Origin: an uncultured Planctomycetia bacterium
Lineage (GTDB): Bacteria > Omnitrophota > Gorgyraeia > Tantalellales > Tantalellaceae
Reading direction: 5' to 3'
Assembly (NCBI GenBank): GCA_964421015.1
Contig: CAYQUS010000004.1
Coordinates: forward strand, 53,744 to 117,743
Length of the DNA stretch: 64,000 bases
Within the stretch, counting starts at the first letter, position 1. Every line of letters starts with the position of its first letter. A program made the position numbers and the translations under genes. Shown here in pieces: positions 1,362 through 61,052 of the stretch. The notes under the pieces are model-generated. The model ran no database searches. It was given only the letters and a program-made list of their open reading frames with translations, and had not been told where the DNA came from.

Positions 1362-1424
1362 CTACCGTTTTGACCCCTCAACACCGTCCCGGCCTCCTCG
1401 GGCCGTTACGTCACTTTAAAACCA

Positions 1425-1600
1425 AGGGCAGGTCTTCTGGCTCAACCTCTCTTTAGGGAACCTTCCCGTCCTTTGGACAGTGGCGTTCTAGCCCGAAAGT
1501 TCCGCGTCTTTTACGCGGACGGTTTTACAGCGGCGGGACCGCGCCCGATTTCAACGGGCTTCCCTATTAAAGCCTTTCATAACACAAAAGGCTACCCTTA
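1425..1600 (-). promoter_or_regulatory. Adenosylcobalamin (B12) riboswitch
   Basis: Minus strand reads AATAGGGAAGCCCGTTGAAATCGGGCGCGGTCCCGCCGCTGTAAAACCG...GCCACTGTCCAAAGGACGGGAAGG...GAGCCAGAAGACCTGCCC. This matches the conserved cobalamin-riboswitch core (AGGGAA, GGTGAAAtCC-like segment, GCGGTCCCGCC.CTGTAA) and the B12 box (AGYCMGGAGACCKGCC). Confidence 0.85.
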
Positions 1601-1634
1601 AGATCTAATGATCCTTTTCACTTCATTGTTGCGC

Positions 1635-5752: not shown

Positions 5753-6256
5753 TCAGGCTATGTCGGAAAATCCGCCGTGAGCCTTGAAATATTCTATTAC
5801 TCCGCCCGCGTCGAGAAACTTTTTCATTATTTCGGGAATGGGCTTGATCTCTATATTCACTCCCTTGGAGATATTCTTGAGCACGTTCTTCTCCAGATCC
5901 AGCTCAAGCTCGTCCATGTCGTCTATATAGTTTGTCTCGCATTCTATCAGGCAAAGACCAACGTTGAAAGCGTTCCTATAGAATATCCTGGCGTAGCTTC
6001 TGGCTATAACAGCCGATATCCCGCTGGCCTTAAGCGCGACGGGGGCCTGCTCCCTGGAAGAACCGCACCCGAAATTATTTCCAGCCACCAGGAAATCCCC
6101 GGGTTTAAGGCGCTTATGAAAATCCTCCTCAAGATCCTCAAATATGTGCTTTGCTAGTTCCTTATGATCCTGTATTTTGAACTTGTACCTTCCCGAAATG
6201 ACGTAATCGGTGTTTATATCATTGGATATTTTAAGACGTCTAGCGAATTTCGCCAT
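5753..6256 (-). CDS. leuD: 3-isopropylmalate dehydratase small subunit (short LeuD type; could alternatively be a homoaconitase small subunit)
   Basis: 167 aa aconitase-swivel domain (GDNIDTD-like NDINTDYVI, GCGSSREQAP). Confidence 0.75.
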   Translation of the reverse strand: MAKFARRLKISNDINTDYVISGRYKFKIQDHKELAKHIFEDLEEDFHKRLKPGDFLVAGNNFGCGSSREQAPVALKASGISAVIARSYARIFYRNAFNVGLCLIECETNYIDDMDELELDLEKNVLKNISKGVNIEIKPIPEIMKKFLDAGGVIEYFKAHGGFSDIA

Positions 6257-8969: not shown

Positions 8970-10394
8970 TTATTCTTTTAACACTTTTATCTGAAAAGGG
9001 TTATCAATTATCATTTCCGTCCCGGAAAGTGTTTTCTGGACCTTACCGAAAACCTCTACGGTTTTTCCATTATATCCATTTAAAGGATCGACGGCTTCAT
9101 CGTAAAAAAATCGCAAGTTCCTCGAAGGTATAATGATCCTCAGTTTTTCTTTCCCTTCGCCGAACATAAGACTTAGCCGTCCGGGAGATACTTCTGCCCC
9201 GGTTATCCTGTCCCTGATAAAACAATAAGAACCAGAGTAAGCAGAAGCTTCTTCGGCCTTGATTTTCGGGGCCCTCCCCCATATCCCTCTCCCGGAGGCA
9301 ACCGCTTTCTGCTGAGCCTGGTTCAAGGCCTTATAATATCTCACATTGGGAGGAAAAGTATATACGCTCGCCAACCCCTCCTCGATAAGTTTCAAATTTA
9401 CCATTTCCCCATCGGCGTAAACATAAGCCAGGTATCTGCCGTACTTATCCTTTATGTCCTGATCAAACTCAAGCGAAAGTTCTTTTCCCCTTACAAGCTC
9501 CTCATTTCTTTCCTTGGCCTCCACGGCTAACATTTCGGGAGAAAAAACCCACTCCGACCCTTGTTTTAGACGCGTTTCAGGAGCATCTATCCCCGTATAT
9601 CTGATCCTCTCTCCGGAGAAAAGTTCCACCGTATCACCGTCTATTACATATCGCGCCATCTGTTTTTTCCCCGAAAGCCGCTCGAATGAACCCTCGGCGC
9701 AACTTACAAGCGAAAAAAGGGTAAGAACGAGAAGAAGAAGCGCGCCTAACCTGCCGGATATCTTACGGCCTTTGGCAAAAAGACATTTCCCGCTGACAGG
9801 GCATTCCCCGCAAAGAGGCCTTATAGCGCGGCACACTTTCCTGCCATGCGATATTAGCACATTAGTGAGGTCCCCCCATTTGTCCCTGTCGAAAATTTTC
9901 ATAAGATCTTTCTCTACCCTGACAGGATCCGCGTTCCCGGTAAACCCTATCCTGCCGGAAACCCTCTTGACATGCGTATCGACTGCTATGCCTTCTATCT
10001 TACCGAATCCGTGATAAAGCACTATGTTGGCCGTTTTTCTGGCCACCCCGGGAAGGCTTACGAGTTCTTTCATGGTACCGGGAACCTTACCTCCGAAACT
10101 TTTCTCTATTTTTCTGGCCGATCCTATTATGTAGCGTGCCTTGCTCCTGTAGAAACCCGTAGACTTTATTATCCTCTCAATATCTCGCTGGCCAGCCGCC
10201 GCGATTTTTTCTATAGTCGGGTATTTTTTAAAAAGTTCCGGAGTGACCATGTTGACCCTTTTGTCGGTGCACTGAGCCGATAGGATCGTCGCTATAAGAA
10301 GCTCGTGAGGTTTCTGGTACTCGAGCGCTGTCGTGGATCCGGGGTAGGCTTTAGAAAGAATGCCGTAGATCTCGGAGGCTATCTTCTTGTTCAT
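8970..10394 (-). CDS. nth: Endonuclease III (Nth, 4Fe-4S) fused in frame to a thermonuclease (SNase) domain and a C-terminal domain of unknown function, through a hydrophobic lipoprotein-signal-like segment
   Basis: Residues 1-210 are EndoIII with CX6CX2CX5C. Residues 215-232 (LGALLLLVLTLFSLVSC) are hydrophobic and lipobox-like. Residues 240-375 are SNase (YVIDGDTVEL...YTGIDAPE). Residues 376-474 are unassigned. No canonical internal start precedes the hydrophobic segment. Confidence 0.7.
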   Translation of the reverse strand: MNKKIASEIYGILSKAYPGSTTALEYQKPHELLIATILSAQCTDKRVNMVTPELFKKYPTIEKIAAAGQRDIERIIKSTGFYRSKARYIIGSARKIEKSFGGKVPGTMKELVSLPGVARKTANIVLYHGFGKIEGIAVDTHVKRVSGRIGFTGNADPVRVEKDLMKIFDRDKWGDLTNVLISHGRKVCRAIRPLCGECPVSGKCLFAKGRKISGRLGALLLLVLTLFSLVSCAEGSFERLSGKKQMARYVIDGDTVELFSGERIRYTGIDAPETRLKQGSEWVFSPEMLAVEAKERNEELVRGKELSLEFDQDIKDKYGRYLAYVYADGEMVNLKLIEEGLASVYTFPPNVRYYKALNQAQQKAVASGRGIWGRAPKIKAEEASAYSGSYCFIRDRITGAEVSPGRLSLMFGEGKEKLRIIIPSRNLRFFYDEAVDPLNGYNGKTVEVFGKVQKTLSGTEMIIDNPFQIKVLKE

Positions 10395-30791: not shown

Positions 30792-31988
30792 TTACTGCAA
30801 TATTTCCGCCACTACTCCGGCGCCTACCGTATGTCCGCCTTCTCTTATGGCGAACCTCAGTTCCTTCTCTATGGCTACCGGCGTTATAAGCTCAACTTCG
30901 ACCGTAACGTTGTCGCCCGGCATTACCATCTCCACTCCCTTAGCCAGCGTAACCACTCCGGTAACGTCCGTCGTCCTTATGTAGAACTGCGGCCTGTACC
31001 CGTTGAAGAAAGGCGTATGCCTTCCACCTTCTTCTTTGCTCAGTATGTACACCTCGGCCTTGAACTTGGTGTGCGGTGTTATAGACCCCGGAGCGGCAAG
31101 TACCTGTCCCCTCTCAAGATTGTTCTTGTCTATACCCCTCAAAAGCACTCCAACGTTGTCTCCGGCCTGACCCTCGTCAAGCAGCTTACGGAACATCTCT
31201 ATTCCCGTAACCGTGCTCTTCTTCGTGTCCCCAAGTCCCACTATCTCCACTTCTTCCCCGACCTTTACCTTACCTCTCTCTATCCTGCCCGTACCGACCG
31301 TTCCTCTTCCGGTTATGCTGAACACGTCCTCTATCGGCATAAGAAAAGGCTTGTCAACGTCTCTCACCGGCGTGGGTATGAAATTGTCGCAGGCGTCCAT
31401 AAGCTCGTCTATGAACTTGCAGTCCGGGCTATTGAGCGCTCCCTCCGCCTGAAGGGCCTTAAGCGCGCTGCCCTTGATTATCGGGGTCGTGTCGCCAGGA
31501 AAATTGTACTTCGTCAAAAGCTCTCTTATCTCAAGCTCAACAAGGTCAAGAAGCTCGGGATCGTCAACCATGTCCACCTTGTTCATGCATACCACTATCG
31601 CGGGCACGTTTACCTGCCTGGCCAGAAGTATGTGCTCTCTCGTCTGCGGCATCGGGCCGTCAGCCGCCGAAACTACAAGTATCGCCCCGTCCATCTGCGC
31701 CGCGCCCGTTATCATGTTCTTGATGTAGTCGGCGTGACCGGGACAGTCTATGTGCGCGTAATGCCTGGCGTTCGTCATGTACTCAACGTGCGCCACGGCT
31801 ATGGTAATTCCTCTTTCCTTTTCCTCGGGAGCCTTGTCTATGGTGTCAAAAGCCCTCTTCTCGGCCATGCCTTTATTCGCCAGGTACAACGTTATCGCGG
31901 ACGTAAGCGAAGTCTTGCCGTGGTCTACGTGACCTATCGTGCCTATGTTAAGATGCGGCTTTGTTCGTTCGAATTTTTCCTTGGCCAT
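30792..31988 (-). CDS. tuf: Elongation factor Tu, str-operon copy
   Basis: 398 aa; [17 protein letters not shown] motifs. The protein string is identical to the 46473..47669 copy. Confidence 0.95.
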
Positions 31989-46472: not shown

Positions 46473-47669
46473 TTACTGCAATATTTCCGCCACTACTCCG
46501 GCGCCTACCGTATGTCCGCCTTCTCTTATGGCGAACCTCAGTTCCTTCTCTATGGCTACCGGCGTTATAAGCTCAACTTCGACCGTAACGTTGTCGCCCG
46601 GCATTACCATCTCCACTCCCTTAGCCAGCGTAACCACTCCGGTAACGTCCGTCGTCCTTATGTAGAACTGCGGCCTGTACCCGTTGAAGAAAGGCGTATG
46701 CCTTCCACCTTCTTCTTTGCTCAGTATGTACACCTCGGCCTTGAACTTGGTGTGCGGTGTTATAGACCCCGGAGCGGCAAGTACCTGTCCCCTCTCAAGA
46801 TTGTTCTTGTCTATACCCCTCAAAAGCACTCCAACGTTGTCTCCGGCCTGACCCTCGTCAAGCAGCTTACGGAACATCTCTATTCCCGTAACCGTGCTCT
46901 TCTTCGTGTCCCCAAGTCCCACTATCTCCACTTCTTCCCCGACCTTTACCTTACCTCTCTCTATCCTGCCCGTACCGACCGTTCCTCTTCCGGTTATGCT
47001 GAACACGTCCTCTATCGGCATAAGAAAAGGCTTGTCAACGTCTCTCACCGGCGTGGGTATGAAATTGTCGCAGGCGTCCATAAGCTCGTCTATGAACTTG
47101 CAGTCCGGGCTATTGAGCGCTCCCTCCGCCTGAAGGGCCTTAAGCGCGCTGCCCTTGATTATCGGGGTCGTGTCGCCAGGAAAATTGTACTTCGTCAAAA
47201 GCTCTCTTATCTCAAGCTCAACAAGGTCAAGAAGCTCGGGATCGTCAACCATGTCCACCTTGTTCATGCATACCACTATCGCGGGCACGTTTACCTGCCT
47301 GGCCAGAAGTATGTGCTCTCTCGTCTGCGGCATCGGGCCGTCAGCCGCCGAAACTACAAGTATCGCCCCGTCCATCTGCGCCGCGCCCGTTATCATGTTC
47401 TTGATGTAGTCGGCGTGACCGGGACAGTCTATGTGCGCGTAATGCCTGGCGTTCGTCATGTACTCAACGTGCGCCACGGCTATGGTAATTCCTCTTTCCT
47501 TTTCCTCGGGAGCCTTGTCTATGGTGTCAAAAGCCCTCTTCTCGGCCATGCCTTTATTCGCCAGGTACAACGTTATCGCGGACGTAAGCGAAGTCTTGCC
47601 GTGGTCTACGTGACCTATCGTGCCTATGTTAAGATGCGGCTTTGTTCGTTCGAATTTTTCCTTGGCCAT
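46473..47669 (-). CDS. tuf: Elongation factor Tu, second copy, in a tRNA-Thr-tuf-rpmG-tRNA-Trp-secE-nusG context
   Basis: The 398-aa protein string is identical to the 30792..31988 copy. Nucleotide identity runs from the stop codon to about 10 nt upstream of the ATG and then stops. Confidence 0.95.
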
Positions 47670-47983: not shown

Positions 47984-48011
47984 GAGTTAAGATTTTACCA
48001 AATAAGTCTTT
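47984..48011 (-). promoter_or_regulatory. Candidate sigma-70 promoter of the tRNA-Thr-tuf operon
   Basis: Minus strand: TTGACA (48011..48006), 16-nt spacer, TAAAAT (47989..47984). An AT-rich tract lies upstream. Confidence 0.45.
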
Positions 48012-48103
48012 TTTGTCAAGCCATATTTGCCATTTTTTTATTTTCTATTGTTTTTCACCCCGAACCGCCGCCACGGAAAGTTTTTTTTAGAAAATAACGG
48101 CAC

Positions 48104-48132
48104 TTTACTCCGAAGAGTTCATCGGATATACT
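48104..48132 (+). promoter_or_regulatory. Candidate promoter of the plus-strand small-protein operon
   Basis: TTTACT, 17-nt spacer, TATACT. It ends 8 nt before the ATG, so the transcript would be nearly leaderless. Confidence 0.3.
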
Positions 48133-48139
48133 TAATGCT

Positions 48140-48535
48140 ATGAAAAAACCGCCTTCTATGAGCTCTGCCTTAACAATGTGGACATTTTTCAGCCTCGGCA
48201 TACTTTCGTCGCTGGCCTTCCGTGTTCTCATAGTCTTCCACCACATCGATCCCGGAATGGTCCGCCCTGTGTGGTACGCCGGGGTCGCGGGCTATACTTT
48301 CTTTTTTTTCTACAGGTACGGCATATCGAAAAAACGTAAAAAAGCTGTTACGGATTTTGGCCTGCTTGAAAAAATATCCTCGGGGGAGTGCCTTTCGGGA
48401 GACGACAGAAAAGCCGCGGAGTATCTTTTTAGATCAATAACCAAGTCAAAAGAGGATATCAACTACCTTGTTATTTTTATTCTGTCGATAGTGGCAGTGG
48501 GCATAGACCTGGCCCTTAAAGCCGCGGGGAGATAG
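48140..48535 (+). CDS. Small integral membrane protein (3 predicted TM helices), unknown function
   Basis: 131 aa with hydrophobic segments at about 13-33, 43-60 and 108-128. First gene of a tightly spaced 4-gene plus-strand cluster. Confidence 0.55.
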   Translation: MKKPPSMSSALTMWTFFSLGILSSLAFRVLIVFHHIDPGMVRPVWYAGVAGYTFFFFYRYGISKKRKKAVTDFGLLEKISSGECLSGDDRKAAEYLFRSITKSKEDINYLVIFILSIVAVGIDLALKAAGR

Positions 48536-48538
48536 GCT

Positions 48539-49015
48539 ATGAGAAAACTGCCTGCCTTTGTCATATTAGCGCTGTGCCTGTCATCATGGGCCTATCCCGA
48601 AGCGGTTCACGCTCAACCTCTTTCGTCACGCCCCTCCGCTCCGGTCGTCGACCCCTCAGATCCGATGGATGCCGTACGGGAGAAGGTAGCCGACCAGATC
48701 TATCTTTATCGGGAGGTAATGCAGCACATATCTGATATCTCTGAAAGTTTCAGTTACGGGTACAATACCCCCGACGAAGCTCTCAAAAGGGTCCTTGTTC
48801 TGAGGCACGCCTACAACACCAAATCCGAGCCGCTTTGCCCCGAGATAAAGCGGTTCAATGACCTAATGAACCAGATGTTCTCGCGGCTCGAGAACTATTT
48901 CATCCATTTTAAGCAGATATACCGGGAGGATCCTTACCTGAACGCGAAACTTGCCGAGACAAAATTCTACACCGCCGAGGAAGCCGAAAGGCTTGAATAT
49001 ACTTACCTTAAATAG
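48539..49015 (+). CDS. Secreted protein of unknown function (signal peptide MRKLPAFVILALCLSSWAYPEAVHA)
   Basis: 158 aa. Starts 4 nt after the upstream gene. No recognisable motif. Confidence 0.5.
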   Translation: MRKLPAFVILALCLSSWAYPEAVHAQPLSSRPSAPVVDPSDPMDAVREKVADQIYLYREVMQHISDISESFSYGYNTPDEALKRVLVLRHAYNTKSEPLCPEIKRFNDLMNQMFSRLENYFIHFKQIYREDPYLNAKLAETKFYTAEEAERLEYTYLK

Positions 49016-49023
49016 GAGAAAAA

Positions 49024-49140
49024 ATGAAACTTTCATCGTCTCAGATAATTTCTTTGGCTGTCCTGGTGGCAATTACGATGATCGTGGTGTATATTCTTAG
49101 ACAGGAAATATCCGACATGCTTTTTCTCGGGGGGAAATAA
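49024..49140 (+). CDS. 38-aa single-TM peptide
   Basis: Hand-translated MKLSSSQIISLAVLVAITMIVVYILRQEISDMLFLGGK. Its stop overlaps the next start (TAACATG). Confidence 0.35.
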   Translation: MKLSSSQIISLAVLVAITMIVVYILRQEISDMLFLGGK

Positions 49141-49141
49141 C

Positions 49142-49465
49142 ATGACACTTGTATCGACCAAAACAAAATGCCGAATGATCGCAGCGGCAACTTTATCCTT
49201 TTCCCTATTCGCGTCCCCTTGTCCCGCCGACCCCATGGACAATCTTAGCAGAACAAGCATAGACCAGGCGACGCGTGAAGTCGACAAAGAGGTGATCCCG
49301 GAAAACTTTCAATGGGTGGTCCGCAAAAAGGCGGACATAAGAAAAGAAGACGGCCAGCTCATAGAGGATCCCGATAAAGACCTGGAAGGTTTTCCTCTCG
49401 AAGAAACCGCCGACGACTTCCCCCCATGCGCCCCGTGCTCCATCAAACCGCAAAAGAGCCGTTAA
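49142..49465 (+). CDS. Small secreted protein of unknown function (signal peptide; acidic; C-terminal PPCAPC)
   Basis: 107 aa. Last gene of the plus-strand cluster. Confidence 0.45.
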   Translation: MTLVSTKTKCRMIAAATLSFSLFASPCPADPMDNLSRTSIDQATREVDKEVIPENFQWVVRKKADIRKEDGQLIEDPDKDLEGFPLEETADDFPPCAPCSIKPQKSR

Positions 49466-49512: not shown

Positions 49513-49541
49513 TTGACAAGAATTCAGAAAGAGTATATCAT
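49513..49541 (+). promoter_or_regulatory. Candidate promoter of tRNA-Gly
   Basis: TTGACA, 17-nt spacer, TATCAT. Located about 20 nt upstream of the tRNA 5' end. Confidence 0.45.
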
Positions 49542-49560: not shown

Positions 49561-49634
49561 GCGAGCGTAGCACAATGGTAGTGCAGAAGCCTTCCAAGCT
49601 TCCTACGTGGGTTCGATTCCCATCGCTCGCTCCA
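49561..49634 (+). tRNA. tRNA-Gly (anticodon TCC)
   Basis: GCGAGCG-TA-GCAC-AATGGTA-GTGC-A-GAAGC-CTTCCAA-GCTTC...GTGGG-TTCGATT-CCCAT-CGCTCGC-T-CCA. Confidence 0.85.
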
Positions 49635-49649: not shown

Positions 49650-50108
49650 CTACTCCGCGTCTTGGCGATACTCAGATATAGGACTGCCTTCCGCTCCGGC
49701 ATAAAAAACAACTATTTCCGCCGGCTTATCGCCCTCGTTATAGCCGTAATGCCATGTATCTACCACCTCGACTATGGCCTCTCCTTCTTTTAGATGAAGA
49801 ATGTCCCCACGCTCGGTAACAACAGTAAGCTCTCCGCTCACCATGTATCCCGCGTTCATAACAGGATGCAAGTGCGTCGGAAGCTTTACCCCGGGAGGTA
49901 TTTTTATATCAAGAACGGTAATTTCGCTCTGCCCTTGAGGGTACCCTGGAAGAATGTTACCGTCCCATGAATTTGAAGTTTTAGCCAGTACTCGGGTTTC
50001 AATCGCCGTCTTTTCCGCTACCGCCTCTTCTCCACATGCCCCGGAATGTATCAAAAAAGCGAAACCCCATACAAATACACATCTTGCGATCTTCCTATAG
50101 GTTAACAC
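49650..50108 (-). CDS. Periplasmic cupin-domain protein
   Basis: Signal peptide, then a cupin_2 barrel with metal-site histidines (PTHLHP...H). Confidence 0.65.
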   Translation of the reverse strand: MLTYRKIARCVFVWGFAFLIHSGACGEEAVAEKTAIETRVLAKTSNSWDGNILPGYPQGQSEITVLDIKIPPGVKLPTHLHPVMNAGYMVSGELTVVTERGDILHLKEGEAIVEVVDTWHYGYNEGDKPAEIVVFYAGAEGSPISEYRQDAE

Positions 50109-50136
50109 TTATCCCCCTCTGCCCGGAAGTTATAAA

Positions 50137-50469
50137 CTATTTCTTATCGGTGCCCATAAGGGCTCCGCGTCTTTCCTCTCTCCTCTCTTGCCTTCTTTCT
50201 ATGCCGGCTTCTACTATGCCGGTGGCTTCCTTACCCACTTCTGATACGGCGGAAACAGCCGGTAGAGATGCTTTTTCGGAAGAAGCCGCGGTTTCCTGTA
50301 CAGCCGGGGTTTCTGTAACGATAGGGGCAGATCCCTCGGTAACAGCCGGAGCTTGAACGGAAACTTGCGTTTCATTGGCCTGCTGATCTACATTCTCTGG
50401 CTCTTCCGCGGCGAACGCCATACTGGAAACGAAAACTAATGCCATCACCATACTAATAATTTTTTTCAT
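50137..50469 (-). CDS. Small secreted low-complexity (Ala/Glu/Val/Thr-rich) protein with an Arg/Glu-rich C-terminus
   Basis: 110 aa; signal peptide MKKIISMVMALVFVSSMAFA. Confidence 0.45.
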   Translation of the reverse strand: MKKIISMVMALVFVSSMAFAAEEPENVDQQANETQVSVQAPAVTEGSAPIVTETPAVQETAASSEKASLPAVSAVSEVGKEATGIVEAGIERRQERREERRGALMGTDKK

Positions 50470-50730
50470 ACTGTCCCTCCTCCGGTCTGTTCTTCAGACT
50501 TTTTAATAAAGGTTTTCACCACCGGGGCGGTAAAAAAACATTCTCCCGGTGAACCATAAACCCGTTTATTATAACTCCGGGCTTCAAGATTGTAAACTTA
50601 ATGCCGTATCAACATATTACGTCTTTTTACGATACGCCCGGTCACCGGATCTGAGGAAATACGCTCTAAATTTTCCAGGGGTTACGCAAAGCCGAACATA
50701 AAAAAACTTCGCGGGCTTTCGCCTCGGCTT

Positions 50731-51522
50731 CTACTCCGCTATCTCGATGCAGTTAATAAGGAAGGTCCTGAGCTCCTGACGGAGATGACAGAAAGAATAA
50801 ACATAATCGCCTTTTATGCTCAGGGGGGTGATAGTCCTTTCCGTGATCTTTTCTTTCCACGAAGACCTGTACCTGATCTTTACGGGATCCTGTGTCTTTA
50901 TGGCTCGGTTCAATACCGTTAGCACATTCCCGCCGGCGGCAGCCGGGCCGGCCGTCTGCGTATAGGTCCTGGCTATATCCTCAACGTTCTCTATACCTCG
51001 TTCTTTCAGGACCTCTAAGGCCTTATTAAAAACTCTCCAGGTGGATATTACATCTGCCAGTGCCCTGTGCTGGAGTTCCGCCTTGATATCGAAATATGAA
51101 ACCACATTACCAAGACTATAACCGCCCGGAACGGTGAAACAGCTCCTTGCCAGCTCAAGAACGTCTATAACAAGATAATCGTTAAGTTCGGTCCTTTTAG
51201 GCCCCAGGGCCGCGGCCAGAAAACTTATGTCGAACCTGGCGTTATACGCTAGAAGAACTGAACCCCTTATGAATTCCATAAACCCGGGCAATACTTGGTC
51301 TATTACTGGCCTGCCTTTAAGCATGTCAGAAGATATCCTGTTCACTCTGTAAGCGCCTGGTGAAACGGGCCTTAAAGGGTCCACAAGCTCCTCAAAAACG
51401 CTCTCTTTACCGTCAGGCTCGCGGCGCATTGCCCCGATCTCGCATATAGCGTCACCTGAACCGGCAAAAAGCCCGGTAGTTTCAAAGTCGAAAACCGTAT
51501 ATGTAGCTTCACTTAAATTCAT
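50731..51522 (-). CDS. DnaQ-like (DEDDh) 3'-5' exonuclease fused to a C-terminal WYL-like domain
   Basis: Exo I motif FDFETTGL; Exo III H...D motif (QHRALADV). C-terminal about 70 aa is VKIRYRSSWKEKITERTITPLSIKGDYVYSFCHLRQELRTFLINCIEI, which matches the WYL-domain pattern. Confidence 0.7.
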   Translation of the reverse strand: MNLSEATYTVFDFETTGLFAGSGDAICEIGAMRREPDGKESVFEELVDPLRPVSPGAYRVNRISSDMLKGRPVIDQVLPGFMEFIRGSVLLAYNARFDISFLAAALGPKRTELNDYLVIDVLELARSCFTVPGGYSLGNVVSYFDIKAELQHRALADVISTWRVFNKALEVLKERGIENVEDIARTYTQTAGPAAAGGNVLTVLNRAIKTQDPVKIRYRSSWKEKITERTITPLSIKGDYVYSFCHLRQELRTFLINCIEIAE

Positions 51523-51579
51523 AGTGTTGTGTTCGGGGTATTGAGTATCGAGGATGCTCCTATCGGCCCCGGCGCCATT

Positions 51580-52386
51580 TTATCCCGATACTTTATAAGT
51601 GATACCCTCGCGACTTCCCTCTGCCGGGTATTTATTTATCTCCTCTTTGGCCGCGGCTATCCTTTCGTACAGATACGGATGGCTGCGGAGAAAATACACC
51701 CATTTCGCATCCCCTCCAAGCCGCTGTAATTTCTCGAGGAATGTAACTATGGCGTTCGGGTCATATCCCGCCTGATACATGTACTTTATGGAAAGCCTGT
51801 CAGCCGCGTATTCGTCCTGTCGCGAAAACCCGTTGGCCGCCAAAGTGTAAACAACGTTGGCCGCCTGCGAAAAATACTGCCATGCCTGGTCTTTTTTATC
51901 GGCGGGCCGCGTATCTAAAAGATATGCCAGGTTAAGGGCCATCTCGGCGCCGAGCCCTTTTTCCACCATTTTCATCACATGCCTTGCCTCATCATGGCCC
52001 ATCTCATGGGCTATAACCGCGGCAAGCTCGTCATCCGTAGCCGCGGCCAGAAGGCCCGTGGAAACCACTATGTAACCGCCTCCCGGAGTGAAGGCCTGTA
52101 TTTCCTTATCCTCGTAAACTATTATGTGTTTGTCGCGGATACGCGGAGAACCTATGGGAGAGGCCAGAGCGCGGGCCGTCTCAAGGGCCCGGGCATCCTT
52201 AACCAAGACTTTTCCCTGAAGTTTAGCTCTCAGGGTATTGATCGCGATGGAATCTTCCTGCTCTAGAGAAAGCCAGGCAGCCTCGTTTTTCTGAGTAGCA
52301 GGATTGTAATAGGTCGCGCAGCCCGAAAAGACCGCGCACATGAAAACCGCCAGAAAAAAATTTAAATACCTCAACGCCCTCATCAT
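51580..52386 (-). CDS. M48-family zinc metallopeptidase lipoprotein
   Basis: Lipobox FSGC; HEMGH zinc motif (AHEMGHDEARH). Confidence 0.75.
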   Translation of the reverse strand: MMRALRYLNFFLAVFMCAVFSGCATYYNPATQKNEAAWLSLEQEDSIAINTLRAKLQGKVLVKDARALETARALASPIGSPRIRDKHIIVYEDKEIQAFTPGGGYIVVSTGLLAAATDDELAAVIAHEMGHDEARHVMKMVEKGLGAEMALNLAYLLDTRPADKKDQAWQYFSQAANVVYTLAANGFSRQDEYAADRLSIKYMYQAGYDPNAIVTFLEKLQRLGGDAKWVYFLRSHPYLYERIAAAKEEINKYPAEGSREGITYKVSG

Positions 52387-52522
52387 AATTCACCATGCAT
52401 TCTCTGTCCGGGCTTTTTAAATCGCCGCGCTCATGCCCAACCTTTTCGTCTCAAAAAAATAAACGGTCCGGGGACGCCATACACCCGGGCCCCGGACCGT
52501 TCTACACACGAATAATTCCGGA

Positions 52523-53191
52523 TCAGAACGACCAGTTAGCAAGGACCATGAATTCCATAGGATCCTTGTTGCCGTTATAGTTACCCAGGCCTATTTGAAG
52601 GCCGTTCAGGTTGTTGGTGTAATTCACAAGCCCGAGCTGAAATCCCTTCATTTCGGCGGCGTAATTTACAAGCCCTCCCTGAAAACCCTTAAAAGTACCG
52701 TCGTTGAAATTTACGACGCCAAGCTGGGCGCCTACGGATTCTCCTTTGGAAACGTTAAGAACACCGCACTGCCCCCCGTGCAGAGTCCCTTCCGTCCAGT
52801 TCACAAGACCCCACTGTATGCCTGTGGTGTCACCGCCTACAATATTAGCCATGCCGTACTGAAGCCCCACAAAGCGCTGTTTAACGTAGTTTACCATTCC
52901 TATCTCTATACCGTAAGCGGATCCCTCAACCCAGTTACCAAGACCGAACTCTACTCCGCTCATGTCGCCGGTGGTCCTGTTGACACCGAACCACACAAGG
53001 CTTAGACCCGTAACGTCCTTGTTGACGGTGTAAAAAACGCTGAGCCTAAGCCCCTTTATTGACTGGTCCTCAGGCACGGTCTGTACAGGGTTGAAAAGCG
53101 CGAGCTGTAAAGGCTGTGCCTCCGTGGCAAAAGCCGTCCTGGCCATTGCCGAGATCAAAATAACTGCCGCCACAAAAAATTTTTTCATCAT
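52523..53191 (-). CDS. Secreted outer-membrane-type repeat protein: about ten tandem 15-residue repeats (consensus h-Q-x-G-h-V-N-aromatic-x-x-G-x-x-x-G) and a C-terminal Phe
   Basis: Signal peptide, then repeats such as IEIGMVNYVKQRFVG / LQYGMANIVGGDTTG / IQWGLVNWTEGTLHG / FQGGLVNYAAEMKG / FQLGLVNYTNNLNG. The protein ends ...LANWSF. Confidence 0.6.
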   Translation of the reverse strand: MMKKFFVAAVILISAMARTAFATEAQPLQLALFNPVQTVPEDQSIKGLRLSVFYTVNKDVTGLSLVWFGVNRTTGDMSGVEFGLGNWVEGSAYGIEIGMVNYVKQRFVGLQYGMANIVGGDTTGIQWGLVNWTEGTLHGGQCGVLNVSKGESVGAQLGVVNFNDGTFKGFQGGLVNYAAEMKGFQLGLVNYTNNLNGLQIGLGNYNGNKDPMEFMVLANWSF

Positions 53192-53297
53192 GTTTTTCTC
53201 TCCTCCTTTTAACCCCCGGTTTTATATTTTCCGATTTCCCTATTCAGATTCTACGCCTTAGGGAACATATTTTCAAACTTTATCTTTTTGAACGTCT

Positions 53298-53720
53298 CTA
53301 TTCCCCGATCACTTTTATCAAAACCCTTTTACGGCGCTGTCCGTCGAACTCTCCGTAAAATATCTGTTCCCACGGCCCCAGATCAAGTCTGCCGTTCGTG
53401 ACCGCTACCACCACTTCTCTTCCCATAACGGTCCTTTTAAGATGAGCGTCGGCGTTGTCCTCTCCGGTGAGGTTATGTTTATATTTGTCCACTCCGTAGG
53501 GCGCGAGTTTTTCAAGCCACACCAGAAAATCCTGATGCAGTCCGGACTCATTATCGTTGATAAAAACAGAACTTGTTATGTGCATGGAGTTAACAAGACA
53601 CATCCCTTCCTTAGCCCCGCACTTTTTTACGGCTGCCTCCACCTGTGGCGTTATATTAATAATGTCGTACCTTTTTTCGGTGTTTAACCATAGATAATCC
53701 GTATGAACTTTCATCGCCAT
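53298..53720 (-). CDS. YjbQ-family (UPF0047) secondary thiamine-phosphate synthase-like protein
   Basis: 140 aa matching the YjbQ fold motifs (DITP...[13 protein letters not shown]...HLKRTVMG). Confidence 0.7.
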
Positions 53721-54276: not shown

Positions 54277-54404
54277 GCCTCGGTTATTATTTGTCTTGGT
54301 GTCCCTTGGAGCCGGGGTCGGCTCCAAGGATCCCCCATCTTTCCGGGAATCTCACAAAAACTTTCCGCCCAAGGTAAGGAAAGTTTTTGTGTATAGGTTA
54401 AGCT

Positions 54405-55051: not shown

Positions 55052-55915
55052 CTAAAGCCCGGCTTTGGCGAACGCCTCGTTGAGCGAATCCAGAACATCA
55101 GAAGCTATCATGCTGAAAATACCTTTTTTCTGCGCAGCTATGTCGCCGGCAAGGCCGTGAAGATAAACCCCGGAAACGGCCGCGCTGTAAGCATTGAGCC
55201 CCTGCCCTATAAAAGAAGCTATTATCCCGGTAAGCACGTCGCCTGTACCTCCCGTTGCCATGCCGGAGTTCCCGGTATCGTTAACGAAAGTCTCTCCTTC
55301 GGGAGAAACTACAACGGTCCCGTGCCCTTTAAGGCACACTACCGCTCCCGTAATGTCGGCAAGACGTTTGGCCGAACCCACCCTTTCCTTCTGCACATCG
55401 GATGTTTTTTTTCCAAGTAAACGAGCGGCCTCGCCCGGATGCGGTGTTATGACCGTAGCGGCTTTCCTGCCCTTTATGGTTTCAGCCTCGCCTTCCATAA
55501 CGTTAAGTCCGTCGGCGTCAAGCACCACCGGAACACCAAGTTTACGCAAAAGCGCTCTTACCAGTTTATGCACATCTTGACTTTGCCCCAGACCGGGCCC
55601 CATCGCCACGACATCGCATTTTTCCGACGCCTCAAGTATTTCCTTTTCCGCTTTCTTCGAAAAAGCCGACCCATCGGCTCCGGCGGCCACGGGCAGGGTC
55701 ATTACTTCAGTAAGTTTGGTTTCCATTACGCCGTTTAGCGTCTCCGGGACGGCGCATGTCACAAGGCCGCTTCCCGCTCTTAAAGCGCCCATCGCCGTAA
55801 GACAGGCCGCGCCAGTCATGCCTCTTGACCCGGCGACCACAAGAACTTTTCCGTAATCCCCTTTATGAGAATCTTCCTTCCTGGAACTTATCTTGCCCAT
55901 GTGTGTTTTAAACAT
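55052..55915 (-). CDS. nnr: ADP-dependent (S)-NAD(P)H-hydrate dehydratase (YjeF C-terminal domain family)
   Basis: 287 aa; KGDYGKVLVVAGS...GMTGAA...GTGDVL motifs of the carbohydrate-kinase-like YjeF_C fold. Confidence 0.75.
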   Translation of the reverse strand: MFKTHMGKISSRKEDSHKGDYGKVLVVAGSRGMTGAACLTAMGALRAGSGLVTCAVPETLNGVMETKLTEVMTLPVAAGADGSAFSKKAEKEILEASEKCDVVAMGPGLGQSQDVHKLVRALLRKLGVPVVLDADGLNVMEGEAETIKGRKAATVITPHPGEAARLLGKKTSDVQKERVGSAKRLADITGAVVCLKGHGTVVVSPEGETFVNDTGNSGMATGGTGDVLTGIIASFIGQGLNAYSAAVSGVYLHGLAGDIAAQKKGIFSMIASDVLDSLNEAFAKAGL

Positions 55916-56294
55916 CTTTCACCGCCAATGCGTTTGATGTAGCTATGTTTTCTGTGTGTGATACGCTCACAAGAACGCGCGTCAGGTCGAACTCCCGCAT
56001 TATCTGCCCGGCTCGCCCGTGAAGCTCAACATAGGGTTTGCCATCGGGATGGTTCAAAACCTCTATGTCGGACCAGTTGAGGCCTATCCTCGCGCCGTCA
56101 GGAAGAGCCTTCTTGACGGCTTCTTTGGCGGCGAACTTGCCGGCCATGTGCTCGTAAAAAAATTTTTTGCTGGAAGCGTGTTCAAGCTCTTTTTCGGTAA
56201 AGATCTTGCGGAGAAAATCTTTTCCTCTTTTTTCCACGACTTTCCGGAACCTTTTTATGTCAACTATGTCCGTCCCCAGACCGAAGACCCTCAC
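55908..56294 (-). CDS. acpS: Holo-[acyl-carrier-protein] synthase
   Basis: 128 aa; GTDIVDIKRF and SVSHTENIA motifs. Confidence 0.8.
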   Translation of the reverse strand: MRVFGLGTDIVDIKRFRKVVEKRGKDFLRKIFTEKELEHASSKKFFYEHMAGKFAAKEAVKKALPDGARIGLNWSDIEVLNHPDGKPYVELHGRAGQIMREFDLTRVLVSVSHTENIATSNALAVKDV

Positions 56295-57007
56295 GAGATC
56301 AGCTCCTTCATTCGCCTGACGGCCTCTTTTATCCCCCAGAAAACGGAATTTGAGATTATGGAATGTCCTATATTAAGTTCGTATATTCCGGATATATGAG
56401 CCACTGCCGCCACGTTGCCGTAAGTAAGGCCGTGCCCGGCAGCCACGATAAGCCCCATTTCCAGGGCCCGTGCCGTCATGTTTTTTATCTCTTCAAGCTC
56501 CTTTTCCGCCGCCATACCTGTTAAAAACCCTTCGGCGTAACGCCCTGTATGAAACTCTACCATCTTTACTCCCGCGGAAACCGACGCTTCCAGCTGTTTG
56601 AGTTCGGGATCTATGAAAAGGCTCGCTCTTATCCCCGAATCTTTCAGCCTTCCCGCGACTTCCCGTATCTTTTTCAGGTTGCATGCTACGTCGAGACCTC
56701 CTTCGGTGGTTATCTCCCGGCGGTTTTCAGGAACGATCGTGGCCTGCTGCGGCCTTAAAAGGCATGCGATATCCACTATTTCAGAGTCTACTGACATTTC
56801 CATATTAAGAGGCGCATTGATCGCCCGCTTTATCATGAAAAGATCTTCGTCCTGGATATGCCGACGGTCCTTCCTGAGATGACATACTATGCTGTCGCAG
56901 CCCGCCTCGACACACTCAATTGCCGCCCTCACAGGATCTGGCTCAACGGTCTTCCTGGCTTCTCTCAGGGTAGCTACATGGTCTATGTTAACACCGAGTT
57001 TTATCAT
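56291..57007 (-). CDS. pdxJ: Pyridoxine 5'-phosphate synthase
   Basis: 238 aa; GVNIDHVATLR N-terminus; TIM barrel. Confidence 0.85.
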   Translation of the reverse strand: MIKLGVNIDHVATLREARKTVEPDPVRAAIECVEAGCDSIVCHLRKDRRHIQDEDLFMIKRAINAPLNMEMSVDSEIVDIACLLRPQQATIVPENRREITTEGGLDVACNLKKIREVAGRLKDSGIRASLFIDPELKQLEASVSAGVKMVEFHTGRYAEGFLTGMAAEKELEEIKNMTARALEMGLIVAAGHGLTYGNVAAVAHISGIYELNIGHSIISNSVFWGIKEAVRRMKELIS

Positions 57008-57032
57008 GTCGTTTTGGAAAAGGCGCCGCGCC

Positions 57033-57476
57033 TTATCGCGAGGTATTCTCCGCGGGTTCTACGGGCAGGTATACGTCCACCACCTTGTTATCCAGATTTA
57101 TGTACTTCACGTCTGAACTCAGCCCCAGACGGAGCTGAACCGCGGCCGTGTATTCCCTGAGATCTATCCTGTCGGTCCTGAGCTCCTCCACCTGGTCCAG
57201 AGCGCTCTTGGGACCGAATATCGCCATTTTTTCAGGTTCGACCTTAACTTTTTCGAACGGAACACGGTACCCTTTGGGAGACTTACCGTAGAAAACCGGT
57301 TTTATAGGTACCTCTTTAAGAGAAAAATTAAAATTCGAAAGTATCTCTTCAGTGGACTCTCGCCTGTGAGCATAAGGATCGCTGTTCATAAGATCAAAAA
57401 CATAGAACCACGTCGCTACGGCAAACGCCAGCGTTACCACCTTGGCCCAGAAATTGTTCGTAATTATGCTTTTCAT
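57033..57476 (-). CDS. YbbR-like domain protein, probable diadenylate-cyclase regulator CdaR
   Basis: N-terminal TM helix plus a single YbbR-like domain. Immediately downstream of cdaA and overlapping it. Confidence 0.55.
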   Translation of the reverse strand: MKSIITNNFWAKVVTLAFAVATWFYVFDLMNSDPYAHRRESTEEILSNFNFSLKEVPIKPVFYGKSPKGYRVPFEKVKVEPEKMAIFGPKSALDQVEELRTDRIDLREYTAAVQLRLGLSSDVKYINLDNKVVDVYLPVEPAENTSR

Positions 57477-58279
57477 CTGGAGATCTTCCCCGGGTTGCGC
57501 ATACCTGTTATCTTTTTTATCACCGAAGGAACATGTCTTTTTTTGTCTTTCGGCGTATAGGCTTTTTCTATTATCCCCGCCAGGTTCTTCGGGTCGATAT
57601 CCGTGTTTATTCGCCCGCCCGACGCCACGGATATGGCGCCGGTCTCCTCGCTTACCACCACGACCACGGCATCGGTCTCTTCCGAAAGACCCAGGGCCGC
57701 GCGGTGCCTTGTGCCCATGCTTTTAGGCACGTCAGGGTTCTGCGTGAGAGGAAAAAGGCATGCCGCGGCTTCAAGCCTCTGGTGCGACACTATTATCCCG
57801 CCGTCATGAAGCGGTGTAGTCACCGAAAATATGGTGTTTATAAGTTCACTGGTTATCTTGGCGTCCAGGCTTACCCCGCTCTCAACGTAACGCCGTAAAC
57901 CGATCTCCCTCTCTATGGCTATAAGGCCGCCTATACGCCTCTTCGACATTATGGCGCATGACTTTGATATCTCGCCTATTATTTCTTTCTCTTCTTGAAA
58001 AACACCGAAACGCCCTATCCTGGCCAATCCTCTTCGTATCTCAGGCTGGAAAATTATGAGGAACGCTACAACGGATATTGCCAGAAGCCTTGTAAGCATC
58101 CAGTTGATGATAACGAGGTTCAATCCCCTGGTAAGGAGGACTATAAGAGAAATGACGATTATCCCCTTGAGCACCTGTTCGGCGGCGGTTCCTTTGAAGA
58201 GAAGGTACACCATGTAGTACATTCCCCACAAAAGCAGTATTTCAAGCACAACTTCCCAGCCTAGAAAAAAACCCATCAT
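57473..58279 (-). CDS. cdaA: Diadenylate cyclase CdaA (c-di-AMP synthase)
   Basis: Three N-terminal TM helices, then a DAC domain with the LHDGG and TRHRAALG motifs. Confidence 0.85.
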   Translation of the reverse strand: MMGFFLGWEVVLEILLLWGMYYMVYLLFKGTAAEQVLKGIIVISLIVLLTRGLNLVIINWMLTRLLAISVVAFLIIFQPEIRRGLARIGRFGVFQEEKEIIGEISKSCAIMSKRRIGGLIAIEREIGLRRYVESGVSLDAKITSELINTIFSVTTPLHDGGIIVSHQRLEAAACLFPLTQNPDVPKSMGTRHRAALGLSEETDAVVVVVSEETGAISVASGGRINTDIDPKNLAGIIEKAYTPKDKKRHVPSVIKKITGMRNPGKISR

Positions 58280-59127
58280 CCCGCGCCTTTTATGGCGTCC
58301 GCTACAAGCGCCGCGTCGCGTATCTCCGCGACGTCGTGCACCCGTACTATGTCCGCCCCGTTAAGTATGGCGGCCGTCACAGCGGCGGCCGTCCCGAAAA
58401 TCCTCTCACCCGAAGTCTTTCCCGTTATCTCGCCCAAAAAACTTTTTCTGGACACACCTACCATTATAGGCCTTGAGAGAACCTTAAAACAAGAAAGTTT
58501 TTTCAATATCTCAAGATTGTGCTCTTTTGTCTTGCCGAACCCTATACCCGGATCTATGATTATCCTTTCGTGGTCTATTCCCGCCTCTAAAGCTGCCTCG
58601 ACGGACAAGGAAAGGTACTCCGTTATTTCCCCGATAAGGTCTACGTAGCTGGGGGACCTCTGCATATCCCTGGGAGTCCCCTTCATATGCATAAGGCACA
58701 CCGCTGCGCCCCGTGAAGCGACGACTTCTGCCATGCGGCTATCCCCATGAAGCGCGGTTATGTCGTTAATTATCCCGGCCCCTTCGTCCAGTGCCAGCCT
58801 TGCCACTTCGCTTTTCGCCGTATCTACAGATATCACAGCGCCGCATTTTTTTCTAAGGAGCCTTACGACCGGGATAACCCGCCTTATCTCTTCTTTTTCG
58901 TCTACCGGAGAAGCCCCAGGCCTTGAGGACTCTCCACCCACGTCGATGATCCCGGCTCCCGCCGATACCATCTCAAGAGCCCTGTCCAGAGCTTTCTCCG
59001 GAGCCATGTACCGCTCGCCGTCGCTGAAAGAATCAGGCGTAACGTTCAATATGCCCATCAGGCACGTCCCGCCCGACAGGCGTATCACATGTTCCCCAAG
59101 ACGCAAGTCTTTCCCGAAAAAAGCCAT
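58276..59127 (-). CDS. folP: Dihydropteroate synthase
   Basis: 283 aa; GILNVTPDSFSDGG motif; pterin-binding TIM barrel. Confidence 0.85.
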   Translation of the reverse strand: MAFFGKDLRLGEHVIRLSGGTCLMGILNVTPDSFSDGERYMAPEKALDRALEMVSAGAGIIDVGGESSRPGASPVDEKEEIRRVIPVVRLLRKKCGAVISVDTAKSEVARLALDEGAGIINDITALHGDSRMAEVVASRGAAVCLMHMKGTPRDMQRSPSYVDLIGEITEYLSLSVEAALEAGIDHERIIIDPGIGFGKTKEHNLEILKKLSCFKVLSRPIMVGVSRKSFLGEITGKTSGERIFGTAAAVTAAILNGADIVRVHDVAEIRDAALVADAIKGAG

Positions 59128-59141
59128 TTAAAAAACCCGCC

Positions 59142-61052
59142 TCAAGCGTTATCCGTGTCGTCCTGCGACATGGACGCGAACCCGAGAAGCTCGGCCACCT
59201 CATTTTCGTAAAGTGTCTCTTTCTCTATGAGTTTGCCGGCAAGAAGGTCCAGCTTATCTTTGGCCGCGGACAGTTTAGAAACCGCCTGATTGTAACAGCC
59301 GTCTACTATCGACTTCACCTCGTCGTCTATGAGCTTAGCGGTATCCTCGCTGTAATTCCTTTCTTCGGCTATGTCCCTTCCGAGGAATATCTGGTCGTGC
59401 CTTCTGCCGAAAGTAAGATGTCCGAGTTTTTCGCTCATGCCGTACTGGGTGACCATATCGCGCGCTATGGTCGTGGCCCGTTTTATGTCGTCACGGGCGC
59501 CGTTGGAAACATCCCTGAACGTTATCTCTTCGCTGGCCCTGCCGCCGAGAAGCCCCGTTATTATGCCGAGGAATTTACTTTTCATGTAAAAATCCTGGTC
59601 TTTTCTGGGAAGCTGTATCGTGTACCCTCCGGCCATGCCGCGAGAAACTATGGTCACCTTATGCAGAGGATCCGCCCCTTCCACAAGATACGCCAGAAGA
59701 GCGTGTCCGGCCTCGTGATACGCCGCTATCTTTTTATCCTCTTCGGTTTTTTTCTTTGACTTTCTTTCGGGGCCGGCTATGACCCTCTCCATAGCCTCCT
59801 GCAGCTCTTCTGTCCCGACAGCTCGCTTATTTCTCCTGGCTCCCAACAGCGCCGCTTCATTGATGAGATTGGCAAGATCAGCCCCGGAAAAACCGGTTGT
59901 TTGTTTGGCTATCTTACCAAGGTTTATGTCCTTCTCCATTTTGACTTCTTTGGAATGGACCTTAAGGACTTCCTCTCTCCCCTGAAGGTCCGGTAGCCCT
60001 ACTACCACCTGGCGATCGAACCTTCCCGGACGCAGAAGCGCCGGGTCAAGAACATCTGGCCTGTTGGTGGCCGCCACAAGTATTACTCCAGTCTCCGTGT
60101 CAAACCCGTCCATCTCGGAAAGAAGCGCGTTAAGGGTCTGCTCGCGTTCGTCGTGCCCTCCCCCTATACCCGAGAACCTCTGTCTTCCCACGGCGTCTAT
60201 TTCGTCGATGAAAATTATACAGCCTTTCTGGCTCAGCTTGACCGACTTCTTAGCCTGATCAAAAAGGTCGCGGACCCTTGAGGCCCCTACGCCGACGAAC
60301 ATCTCTACAAAATCGGATCCTGAGAGGCTGAAGAAAGGAACACCGGCTTCCCCGGCGACAGCCTTTGCCAGAAGGGTTTTACCGGTACCGGGAGGCCCCA
60401 TAAGAAGGACCCCTTTGGGCATCTTACCGCCAAGACGCTGGAATTTTCTGGGGTCCTTAAGGAACTCTATGACCTCTTTGAGCTCTTCCTTGGCCTCTTC
60501 TATGCCGGCCACCTGATCGAATGTGACCCTTGTCTTGTCTTTAGCCGCAAGTTTCGCCCTAGACTTACCGAATGAAAGCATCCTTCCGCCTCCGGCCGAA
60601 GCTCCTCGGTAAACAAAGAACCAGAGGAAAAATATGAAAAGTATCATCGGCCCAAGCGAGTAAAAAAGGTTCGCCAGGAAAGTCTGCGGAGGTTTGATGT
60701 CAAAGTCCGGGATATTGGACCGCATCGCGTTAAGAAGCACGGTATCCTCTTCCGGCACTATCACCGAAAAAGCAAGGCCGCTGTTCAGCTTACCCGCCAC
60801 TCTGTCCTCCACTTTAACCGCGGAAACTATTGTGCCGGAACGGTCGTTCGTCATGACCGTGTCGTAGAACTCTTTGTATGTCATGGATTTAGCTGTCTGC
60901 TCAAAAGATGAAAAAACCCACTGAAAAATAGACAGAACGGCCACTATGATAAATATCCACGTCACCAGGTTCTTGTCAGAACCGGGCGTTTTGCTTCCTT
61001 CCGGGGGTGTCATGCCCTTTTTACCCCGTTCAGGTTTTTGCCTGTTTTCCAT
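59142..61052 (-). CDS. ftsH: ATP-dependent zinc metalloprotease FtsH
   Basis: 636 aa; two TM helices, AAA+ Walker [15 protein letters not shown] zinc motif. Confidence 0.95.

Follow-up and report, generated by a model that had tools for sequence, protein, structure and literature searches.

A tRNA-linked module of small predicted envelope proteins with a conserved ORF2-ORF4 pair in an Omnitrophota tRNA-tuf array

What is a set of four small, tightly packed genes without a recognisable family doing on the plus strand, among tRNA genes, in a region of an Omnitrophota genome where the remaining genes lie on the minus strand? We investigated this question in a stretch of 64,000 nucleotides (nt) of contig CAYQUS010000004.1, hereafter the window, in which an initial annotation had described four open reading frames (ORFs) as an operon of small envelope proteins and had suggested an immunity, bacteriocin or anti-phage role. 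The answer we favour, to which we give an even chance of being right, is a vertically inherited envelope module specific to an Omnitrophota lineage, in which an exported four-helix bundle (ORF2) works with the acidic ORF4 and with membrane partners. Re-reading of the sequence returned the four ORFs at the coordinates and lengths first annotated, and their proposed topology (a protein with three transmembrane [TM] helices, a secreted protein, a single-TM peptide and a secreted acidic protein ending in PPCAPC) agreed with hydrophobicity, AlphaFold2 (AF2) models and composition. The module, as defined by ORFs and their translations (lengths in amino acids, aa), consists of:

48140-48535, plus strand: ORF1, 131 aa, basic, three-TM protein
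48539-49015, plus strand: ORF2, 158 aa, predicted exported, core member
49024-49140, plus strand: ORF3, 38 aa, single-TM micro-protein, accessory member
49142-49465, plus strand: ORF4, 107 aa, predicted exported, acidic, core member

The spacers between ORF1 and ORF2, ORF2 and ORF3, and ORF3 and ORF4 are 3, 8 and 1 nt, as had been annotated; the last pair, which had been called overlapping, is in fact separated by a 1-nt gap (TAA-C-ATG). Shine-Dalgarno-like sequences lie upstream of ORF2 (GGGGAGA), ORF3 (AGGAGA, a strong one) and ORF4 (GGGGGG). ORF1 lacks a Shine-Dalgarno sequence, and GGAGG-like ones precede most of the other window genes examined. The base composition of the module is native, with a GC content of 0.41-0.52 and a third-position GC content (GC3) of 0.50-0.61, like that of the neighbouring genes. 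In NCBI records, ORF2 and ORF4 are named PKZ41_04300 and PKZ41_04295, both as "hypothetical protein" of a Candidatus Omnitrophota metagenome-assembled genome.

Gene conservation and the core pair

About ten related loci were compared, and scans of genomes and metagenomes for further loci yielded two species representatives and three metagenome contigs. Homologues of the module ORFs keep the same order in other species. We compared the proportions of non-synonymous (pN) and synonymous (pS) differences; synonymous sites were saturated, and hence no dN/dS ratio is given. For ORF1 and ORF2, pN was 0.20-0.30 against a pS of 0.72-0.90, and for ORF4 it was 0.43-0.46 against 0.69-0.92. For ORF3, the values were 0.43-0.48 and 0.51-0.63, so that support from selection is weak for this ORF. 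The changes among near-identical strains were mostly synonymous or conservative, and none was a frameshift. Because the homologues occur in the same order and pN is well below pS, the four ORFs are, judging by these comparisons, real genes and not chance ORFs, with the reservation made for ORF3, and ORF2 is under strong purifying selection.

ORF2 and ORF4 were found in every close locus that extends far enough. They are followed by tRNA-Gly in the window and in L001-L005, L007/L008, L010, L013, L021 and L022; L024 contains both ORFs and ends before any tRNA-Gly. The distance from ORF4 to tRNA-Gly is 70-140 nt in every locus reaching that far, and the position beside tRNA-Gly is fixed across species that share ~50-60% amino-acid identity. 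The other members come and go. ORF1 is lacking in L010, L013 and L022, and ORF3 was seen in L007, L010 and L013/L014 and is lacking in L021, L022 and L024, which have no space for it. Relatives also carry members that the window lacks, namely a hydrophobic protein of 98 aa, a protein of 157 aa whose N-terminus is hydrophobic, and a CheY-like receiver, a receiver-only response regulator that lies inside the module of L010, L013 and L014. The initial annotation had made co-conservation of all four genes part of its claim, and this did not hold, with ORF2 and ORF4 always paired and ORF3 and ORF1 patchy. Across the compared loci, the four-gene operon is best described as a core pair, ORF2-ORF4, with lineage-variable membrane accessories.

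Two arrangements of the locus were distinguished. Type A, found in the window and its strain variants (L001-L006) as well as in three separate species (L021, L024 and L025), has tuf and tRNA-Thr(ggt) on one strand and ORF1, ORF2, an optional ORF3, ORF4 and tRNA-Gly divergent on the other. In type B (L007-L009, L010-L012, L013/L014 and L022), all genes are on one strand, in the following order:

1: FtsH, FolP, CdaA, YbbR, PdxJ, AcpS, carbohydrate kinase
2-3: an optional DUF6973 gene, then tRNA-Thr(tgt) and tRNA-Tyr
4-7: an optional radical SAM/SPASM gene, an optional ORF1, ORF2 and an optional ORF3
8-10: an optional 98-aa hydrophobic protein, a 157-166-aa protein with a hydrophobic N-terminus and an optional CheY-like receiver
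11-13: ORF4, tRNA-Gly(tcc) and a gene of >1300-2400 codons (L007-L013) or a 474-aa ORF (L022)

The radical SAM/SPASM gene of L007-L009, which stands before the module, encodes 325 aa, and the DUF6973 gene that precedes tRNA-Thr in L010, L013 and L014 encodes 385 aa. The genes after tRNA-Gly in most relatives are very long and without domains, and include incomplete calls of 2181-2461 aa. L007 also contains a perfect 83-nt direct repeat (9932-10014 and 10125-10207, copies 193 nt apart) made up of the last 17 nt of tRNA-Gly and the downstream terminator; it could be a local duplication or a scar resembling an attachment (att) site, and is not present in the window.

ORF2 is predicted to begin with a hydrophobic segment resembling a signal sequence, followed by a linker modelled at low confidence and, at residues 42-157, by an up-down four-helix bundle. 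The structure model has a predicted local distance difference test (pLDDT) score of 82, with 89 residues at 90 or above, and its bundle part is confident. In the 18 homologues with at least 49% identity, the mature domain is nearly invariant. The family has 34 representative clusters (at 50% identity) among 1.84 billion proteins, all but two of them of 102-165 aa, and only F71, E118 and E148 are invariant across it. Its distant member L028 is without tRNAs and without an obvious ORF4. The neighbours of ORF2 in fold comparison include many domains with which chemoreceptors and histidine kinases bind ligands in the periplasm; designed bundles score as well against ORF2 as the sensor domains do, and the match therefore tells little more than the fold. 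A metal or haem site in ORF2 was considered and rejected, because the candidate residues H63, H90, M61 and M113 are kept among close relatives only and disappear in the wider family. By the same evidence, ORF2 does not fit the four-helix-bundle metal or haem proteins (cytochrome b562, ferritin-like), which have conserved His, Met or Glu ligands.

ORF4 has a short hydrophobic N-terminus and a mature part with an isoelectric point (pI) of 4.5, containing 19 Asp/Glu and 8 Pro in 78 residues, a composition that suggests that mature ORF4 is largely disordered. It is fast-evolving, yet an A-T-x-E-x-D motif (ATREVD) is invariant. The PPCAPC tail is confined to the closest relatives, and several relatives have a semi-conserved aromatic C-terminus. 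A radical SAM/SPASM maturase acting on the Cys-containing tail was considered and set aside: the enzyme occurs in L007-L009 only, where its gene lies upstream of the module promoter and ORF4 is without Cys, and no such enzyme is encoded in the window. ORF3 consists of one hydrophobic helix, whose length and pattern QI...LR(Q/E)E..M(L/F) are kept in four species.

ORF1 has a pI of 9.8, and its modelled helices (10-36, 38-72 and 105-128; AF2 model, pLDDT 89.8) together with its hydrophobic stretches fit three TM segments; the predicted topology is three TM helices and a cytoplasmic helical loop. The 61 homologues of ORF1 belong to a family of ~131 aa that is found in Omnitrophota and Nitrospirota and is not covered by a Pfam model. 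In the alignment of this family (A2), 23 positions are invariant, among them an Arg of TM1, an Asp of TM3, a VRPVWY loop and a cytoplasmic KRK patch. Homologues of other lineages, Nitrospirota among them, are found alone or beside unrelated genes: a sigma-54 activator in one context, exosortase and Lon in another, a Tricorn/PD40 protein and an M28 peptidase in a third, and also a rhodanese-domain gene upstream together with inositol-1-phosphate synthase or AdoMet synthase downstream. By this distribution, ORF1 is a member of an undescribed 3-TM family that is wider than the module and clearly independently distributed, and the family is a candidate for a new family description.

Transcription and the inverted tRNA block

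We next turn to the signals around the module, which comprise three promoters and the tRNA gene that is its invariant 3' neighbour:

48104-48132, plus strand: module promoter from the promoter scan, -35 box TTTACT at 48104-48109, 17-nt spacer, -10 box TATACT at 48127-48132
47992-48019, minus strand: divergent promoter for tRNA-Thr(ggt) and tuf, TTGACA-16-TAAAAT with an extended -10 TG, matching at 11/12 positions in the scan
49513-49541, plus strand: tRNA-Gly promoter, TTGACA-17-TATCAT, matching at 11/12 positions in the scan, inside the 95-nt spacer after ORF4
49561-49634, plus strand: tRNA-Gly(tcc)

The TTTACT-17-TATACT promoter proposed in the initial annotation was thus located, and it is phylogenetically footprinted in the relatives. 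Against an expectation of 0.02 occurrences per window, the exact pattern was found twice. The ATG of ORF1 follows the -10 box by 7 nt. The arrangement CTTTAC(T/G)-17-TATACT, 6-8 nt and ATG is conserved before ORF1 in L021, L024, L025 and L007 and before ORF2 in L010, L013 and L022, so that in seven species-level loci the placement of the promoter is constant whichever gene comes first. The distant L028 has TATAAT, 6 nt and ATG. In L013 (~6180-6215), TATACTATACCTATGAAA, a segment that contains the -10 box and the start of ORF2, occurs as a tandem duplicate. With a distance of 6-8 nt between the -10 box and the ATG and no Shine-Dalgarno sequence, the first cistron is probably leaderless or near-leaderless.

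The divergent tRNA-Thr(ggt)/tuf promoter shares the intergenic region with the module promoter and is almost invariant in a five-locus alignment. The tRNA-Gly promoter is conserved as TTGACA-17-TAT(C/T)AT in L007, L010, L013, L021 and L022. No terminator was found between ORF4 and tRNA-Gly in the window, where the fold of the spacer is not unusual (z -0.8), and L010 has terminators after tRNA-Tyr and after tRNA-Gly and none between ORF4 and tRNA-Gly. Between the start of ORF1 and the end of ORF4, a weak hairpin in ORF2 is the sole terminator-like match. Since no terminator precedes tRNA-Gly, we infer that the module mRNA runs into tRNA-Gly and is trimmed there.

The setting of the module in the window includes the following features:

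49650-53720, minus strand: six unrelated genes, namely cupin, 110-aa protein, RNase T-WYL, M48 peptidase, 222-aa protein and UPF0047
54489-54404, minus strand: tRNA-Tyr
54884-54809, minus strand: tRNA-Thr(tgt)
55052-61052, minus strand: the run from FtsH to carbohydrate kinase

The remainder of the window is a minus-strand block that contains ribosomal proteins, rpoA, rpoB/C, two tuf copies, nusG and the FtsH-to-carbohydrate-kinase run. The module had been described as the only sizeable plus-strand unit, lying among tRNA genes in a region of variable content, and both descriptions stand: the other long plus-strand ORFs that were checked overlap minus-strand genes (such as those for L17, RpoA and LplA/B, or a receptor-like gene leaving the window start), tRNA-Gly is the only other plus-strand gene found, and gene content differs between relatives. 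With respect to carbohydrate kinase, tRNA-Thr(tgt) and tRNA-Tyr, the window module faces the other way from the modules of L007, L010, L013 and L022, and the divergent layout with tRNA-Thr(ggt)-tuf is common to the window, L021, L024 and L025. The simplest reading of these loci is that the block of module and tRNA-Gly was inverted within an ancestral array of tRNA-Thr, tRNA-Tyr, [module], tRNA-Gly, tRNA-Thr and tuf. The module is the only plus-strand unit because it and tRNA-Gly are inverted here and in three sister species; its orientation is a lineage-specific inversion and no sign of foreign origin.

Several further observations concern this region. Five contigs from NCBI, ENA and JGI, at least two of them apparently from one assembly, end at ~48171-48183 and 50155-50177; no inverted or direct repeat was found at these positions, and strain variation could be the cause. 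The breaks at ~48171 and 50177 had prompted the idea of an invertible segment, which was rejected for the lack of inverted repeats at those points. An 18-nt inverted match (89%) links 48074-48091, upstream of the module promoter, with 54350-54367, an arm of the tRNA-Tyr terminator hairpin. It is T-rich, of low complexity and not kept in sister loci, and was not relied on as a relic of the inversion. The two tuf copies (30792-31988 and 46473-47669, minus strand) are 100% identical over 1197 nt, and the identity stops 1-10 nt from the gene ends, which points to gene conversion or assembly collapse; the identical copies are probably a cause of the short-read assembly fragmentation nearby. The RNase T-WYL gene (50731-51522, minus strand) encodes a 263-aa protein with an RNase T/DnaQ-like exonuclease domain and a C-terminal WYL domain; WYL domains are often found in ligand-sensing regulators in defence contexts. 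Near the start of the window, tandem cobalamin riboswitch aptamers (1253-1330 and 1410-1614, minus strand; Cobalamin 101 bits and AdoCbl-II 51.5 bits) lie upstream of a minus-strand ORF running from ~1250 past position 1, with 424 aa open, which by eye resembles a TonB-dependent receptor.

Readings of the module

In the envelope module that we favour, the two predicted exported proteins, ORF2 and ORF4, are the core, around which small membrane proteins are gained or lost by species. Transcription would start from the module's own conserved sigma-70-type promoter, the first cistron would be translated without a leader, and ORF2 to ORF4 would be expressed by Shine-Dalgarno-dependent, closely coupled translation. 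The mRNA would continue into tRNA-Gly, with tRNA processing probably setting its 3' end. As a guess, the ORF2 bundle might bind the conserved motif of ORF4, or a small ligand, in the periplasm, and the membrane subunits might anchor the bundle or relay a signal, in a structural or sensing role in the envelope and not as a toxin, immunity or defence set. Several points weigh against this picture. No experiment or homology ties the module proteins to a function, export is read from hydrophobic N-termini only, and binding between ORF2 and ORF4 is pure inference. The leaderless start and the read-through into tRNA-Gly are deduced from sequence, and tRNA-Gly has a strong promoter of its own, so that it may be tied to the module by position only. 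L028 shows that a more distant relative of ORF2 can occur by itself, and the ORF2-ORF4 pairing may therefore be limited to this subclade. Several of the compared loci are near-identical strains or duplicate contigs of one organism.

Known families were searched for without success. Scans of the four proteins and of the relatives' extra proteins of unknown family against Pfam, NCBIfam, PADLOC and PHROGs returned nothing above noise, in line with the absence of recognisable domains noted by eye at the outset. PADLOC-DB (5027 models, E <= 1) gave no match to the four window proteins or to two extra L007 proteins, and no module protein matched a bacteriocin family in Pfam or NCBIfam. Profile searches of the PDB with ORF1, ORF2 and ORF4 were unproductive; the only match below 0.01, the MotA/ExbB-like chain 8vvi_F (E 1e-4), is the sum of four weak repeats, each with E of at least 4, and was discarded. 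We found no relatives of the module proteins on plasmid, phage or IMG/VR contigs, and no integrase near the module (the neighbours being cupin, RNase T-WYL, M48 peptidase and UPF0047). No locus has a transporter or peptidase gene within or beside its module. Integration at tRNA-Gly was considered and rejected, as the window holds no att-like second copy of the tRNA-Gly 3' end.

These searches bear most directly on the suggestion that the module is an immunity, bacteriocin or anti-phage surface system in a tRNA-flanked variable island. Such a system would fit the small size and the TM or exported nature of the proteins, their location between tRNA genes with a gene content that varies between relatives, and the lack of matches to housekeeping families. 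However, because there are no family matches, mobile relatives, integrase or att repeat and the composition is native, a defence, bacteriocin or immunity role is unsupported, and the initial annotation's suggestion was not borne out. The missing PADLOC and PHROGs matches and plasmid, phage or IMG/VR relatives, the lack of an ABC transporter, C39 peptidase, integrase or att-like tRNA duplicate in the window, the same tRNA-Gly position across species at 50-60% identity, the strong purifying selection estimated for ORF2 and the native GC and GC3 together make this role very improbable. It is unlikely, to a lesser degree, that the genes are functionally unrelated neighbours packed together by a compact small genome and an insertion-tolerant tRNA array. 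The clearly independent distribution of ORF1, the dispensability of ORF3 and the occurrence of distant ORF2 relatives alone favour such packing, and for ORF1 and ORF3 it is possible. It accounts poorly for the core pair, as the inversion, insertions between ORF2 and ORF4 and ~50% divergence have not parted these two in any close locus, and it is also opposed by the one conserved promoter for whichever gene is first and by the 1-8 nt spacers with Shine-Dalgarno sequences.

The main functional rival is a peptide-signalling or sensing system, in which ORF4 would be a secreted pro-peptide, ORF2 its periplasmic four-helix-bundle binder with a chemoreceptor-like sensor fold, and the membrane proteins would transmit the signal inward to the CheY-like receiver found in some relatives. 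The periplasmic chemoreceptor and histidine kinase ligand-binding domains among the fold neighbours of ORF2, the receiver-only response regulator in the module of L010, L013 and L014, and the small size, predicted export, conserved motif and, in several relatives, semi-conserved aromatic C-terminus of ORF4 are consistent with it. However, none of the loci has a histidine kinase or another transducer, the window, L007, L021, L022 and L024 lack the receiver, no helical fold is more generic than the four-helix bundle, and no conserved ligand-binding residues stand out, F71, E118 and E148 being the only invariant positions. We therefore consider this system rather unlikely. A bolder proposal, which we consider distinctly doubtful, holds that the module is an undescribed envelope system of host-dependent Omnitrophota nanobacteria. 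In it, the free ORF2 bundle would capture ORF4 as a secreted acidic ligand or pro-peptide, expression would be hard-wired to the translation machinery through the leaderless first cistron and the mRNA processed at tRNA-Gly in the tRNA-tuf array, and ORF1 would represent a new, widespread 3-TM family with membrane-embedded Arg and Asp in several phyla.

The envelope module that we favour would, if correct, matter in several ways. It would provide a clean, conserved case of protein genes nested in, and probably co-transcribed with, a tRNA-tuf array, and a first cistron that is likely leaderless where the rest of the genome depends on Shine-Dalgarno sequences. There would be two families to name, the free exported four-helix bundle (~34 clusters at 50%) and the 131-aa 3-TM family. 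A false lead for genome mining would be removed, the module being no defence or bacteriocin island. Its present value lies mainly in a corrected annotation and in a candidate for structural and expression work in an uncultured phylum.

Comparison with known systems

The four-helix-bundle fold of the ORF2 model is shared with 4HB_MCP-type chemoreceptor domains, the TorS and NarQ sensor domains and the CZB domain. Unlike these sensors, to which its identity is 4-14% and whose Pfam models it does not match, ORF2 is predicted to be exported as a free protein that ends with the bundle and lacks both TM2 and an output or signalling domain. CpxP, Spy and ZraP resemble ORF2 as small helical periplasmic proteins of similar length in envelope-related contexts. 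However, ORF2 lacks the LTXXQ motif in its sequence and alignment and has no match to their Pfam/NCBIfam models even at E <= 10, and CpxP/Spy/ZraP form a helical-hairpin dimer, whereas ORF2 is predicted to be a monomeric four-helix bundle. Like the module, class II bacteriocin-immunity sets are clusters of very small genes for TM or exported peptides. In contrast to them, ORF3 and ORF4 lack a double-glycine leader, and the module lacks a dedicated transporter/peptidase or a mobile context and is syntenic across species.

The closest comparison concerns the layout. E. coli and many other bacteria have a thrU-tyrU-glyT-thrT-tufB operon, and the same tRNA set and order is found here, with Thr(tgt), Tyr(gta), Gly(tcc) and Thr(ggt) followed by tuf. 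Unlike in the E. coli operon, a protein module of 2-7 genes lies between tRNA-Tyr and tRNA-Gly, the array is split into units with their own promoters and terminators, and in the window the module and tRNA-Gly are inverted, with six further genes between the module and tRNA-Tyr. There is no evidence of a new mechanism. What is new here is the undescribed protein families of an uncultured phylum, set in a variant of the classic tRNA-tufB arrangement; as in the E. coli thrU-tufB operon, protein-coding sequence probably shares transcription units with tRNAs in this array.

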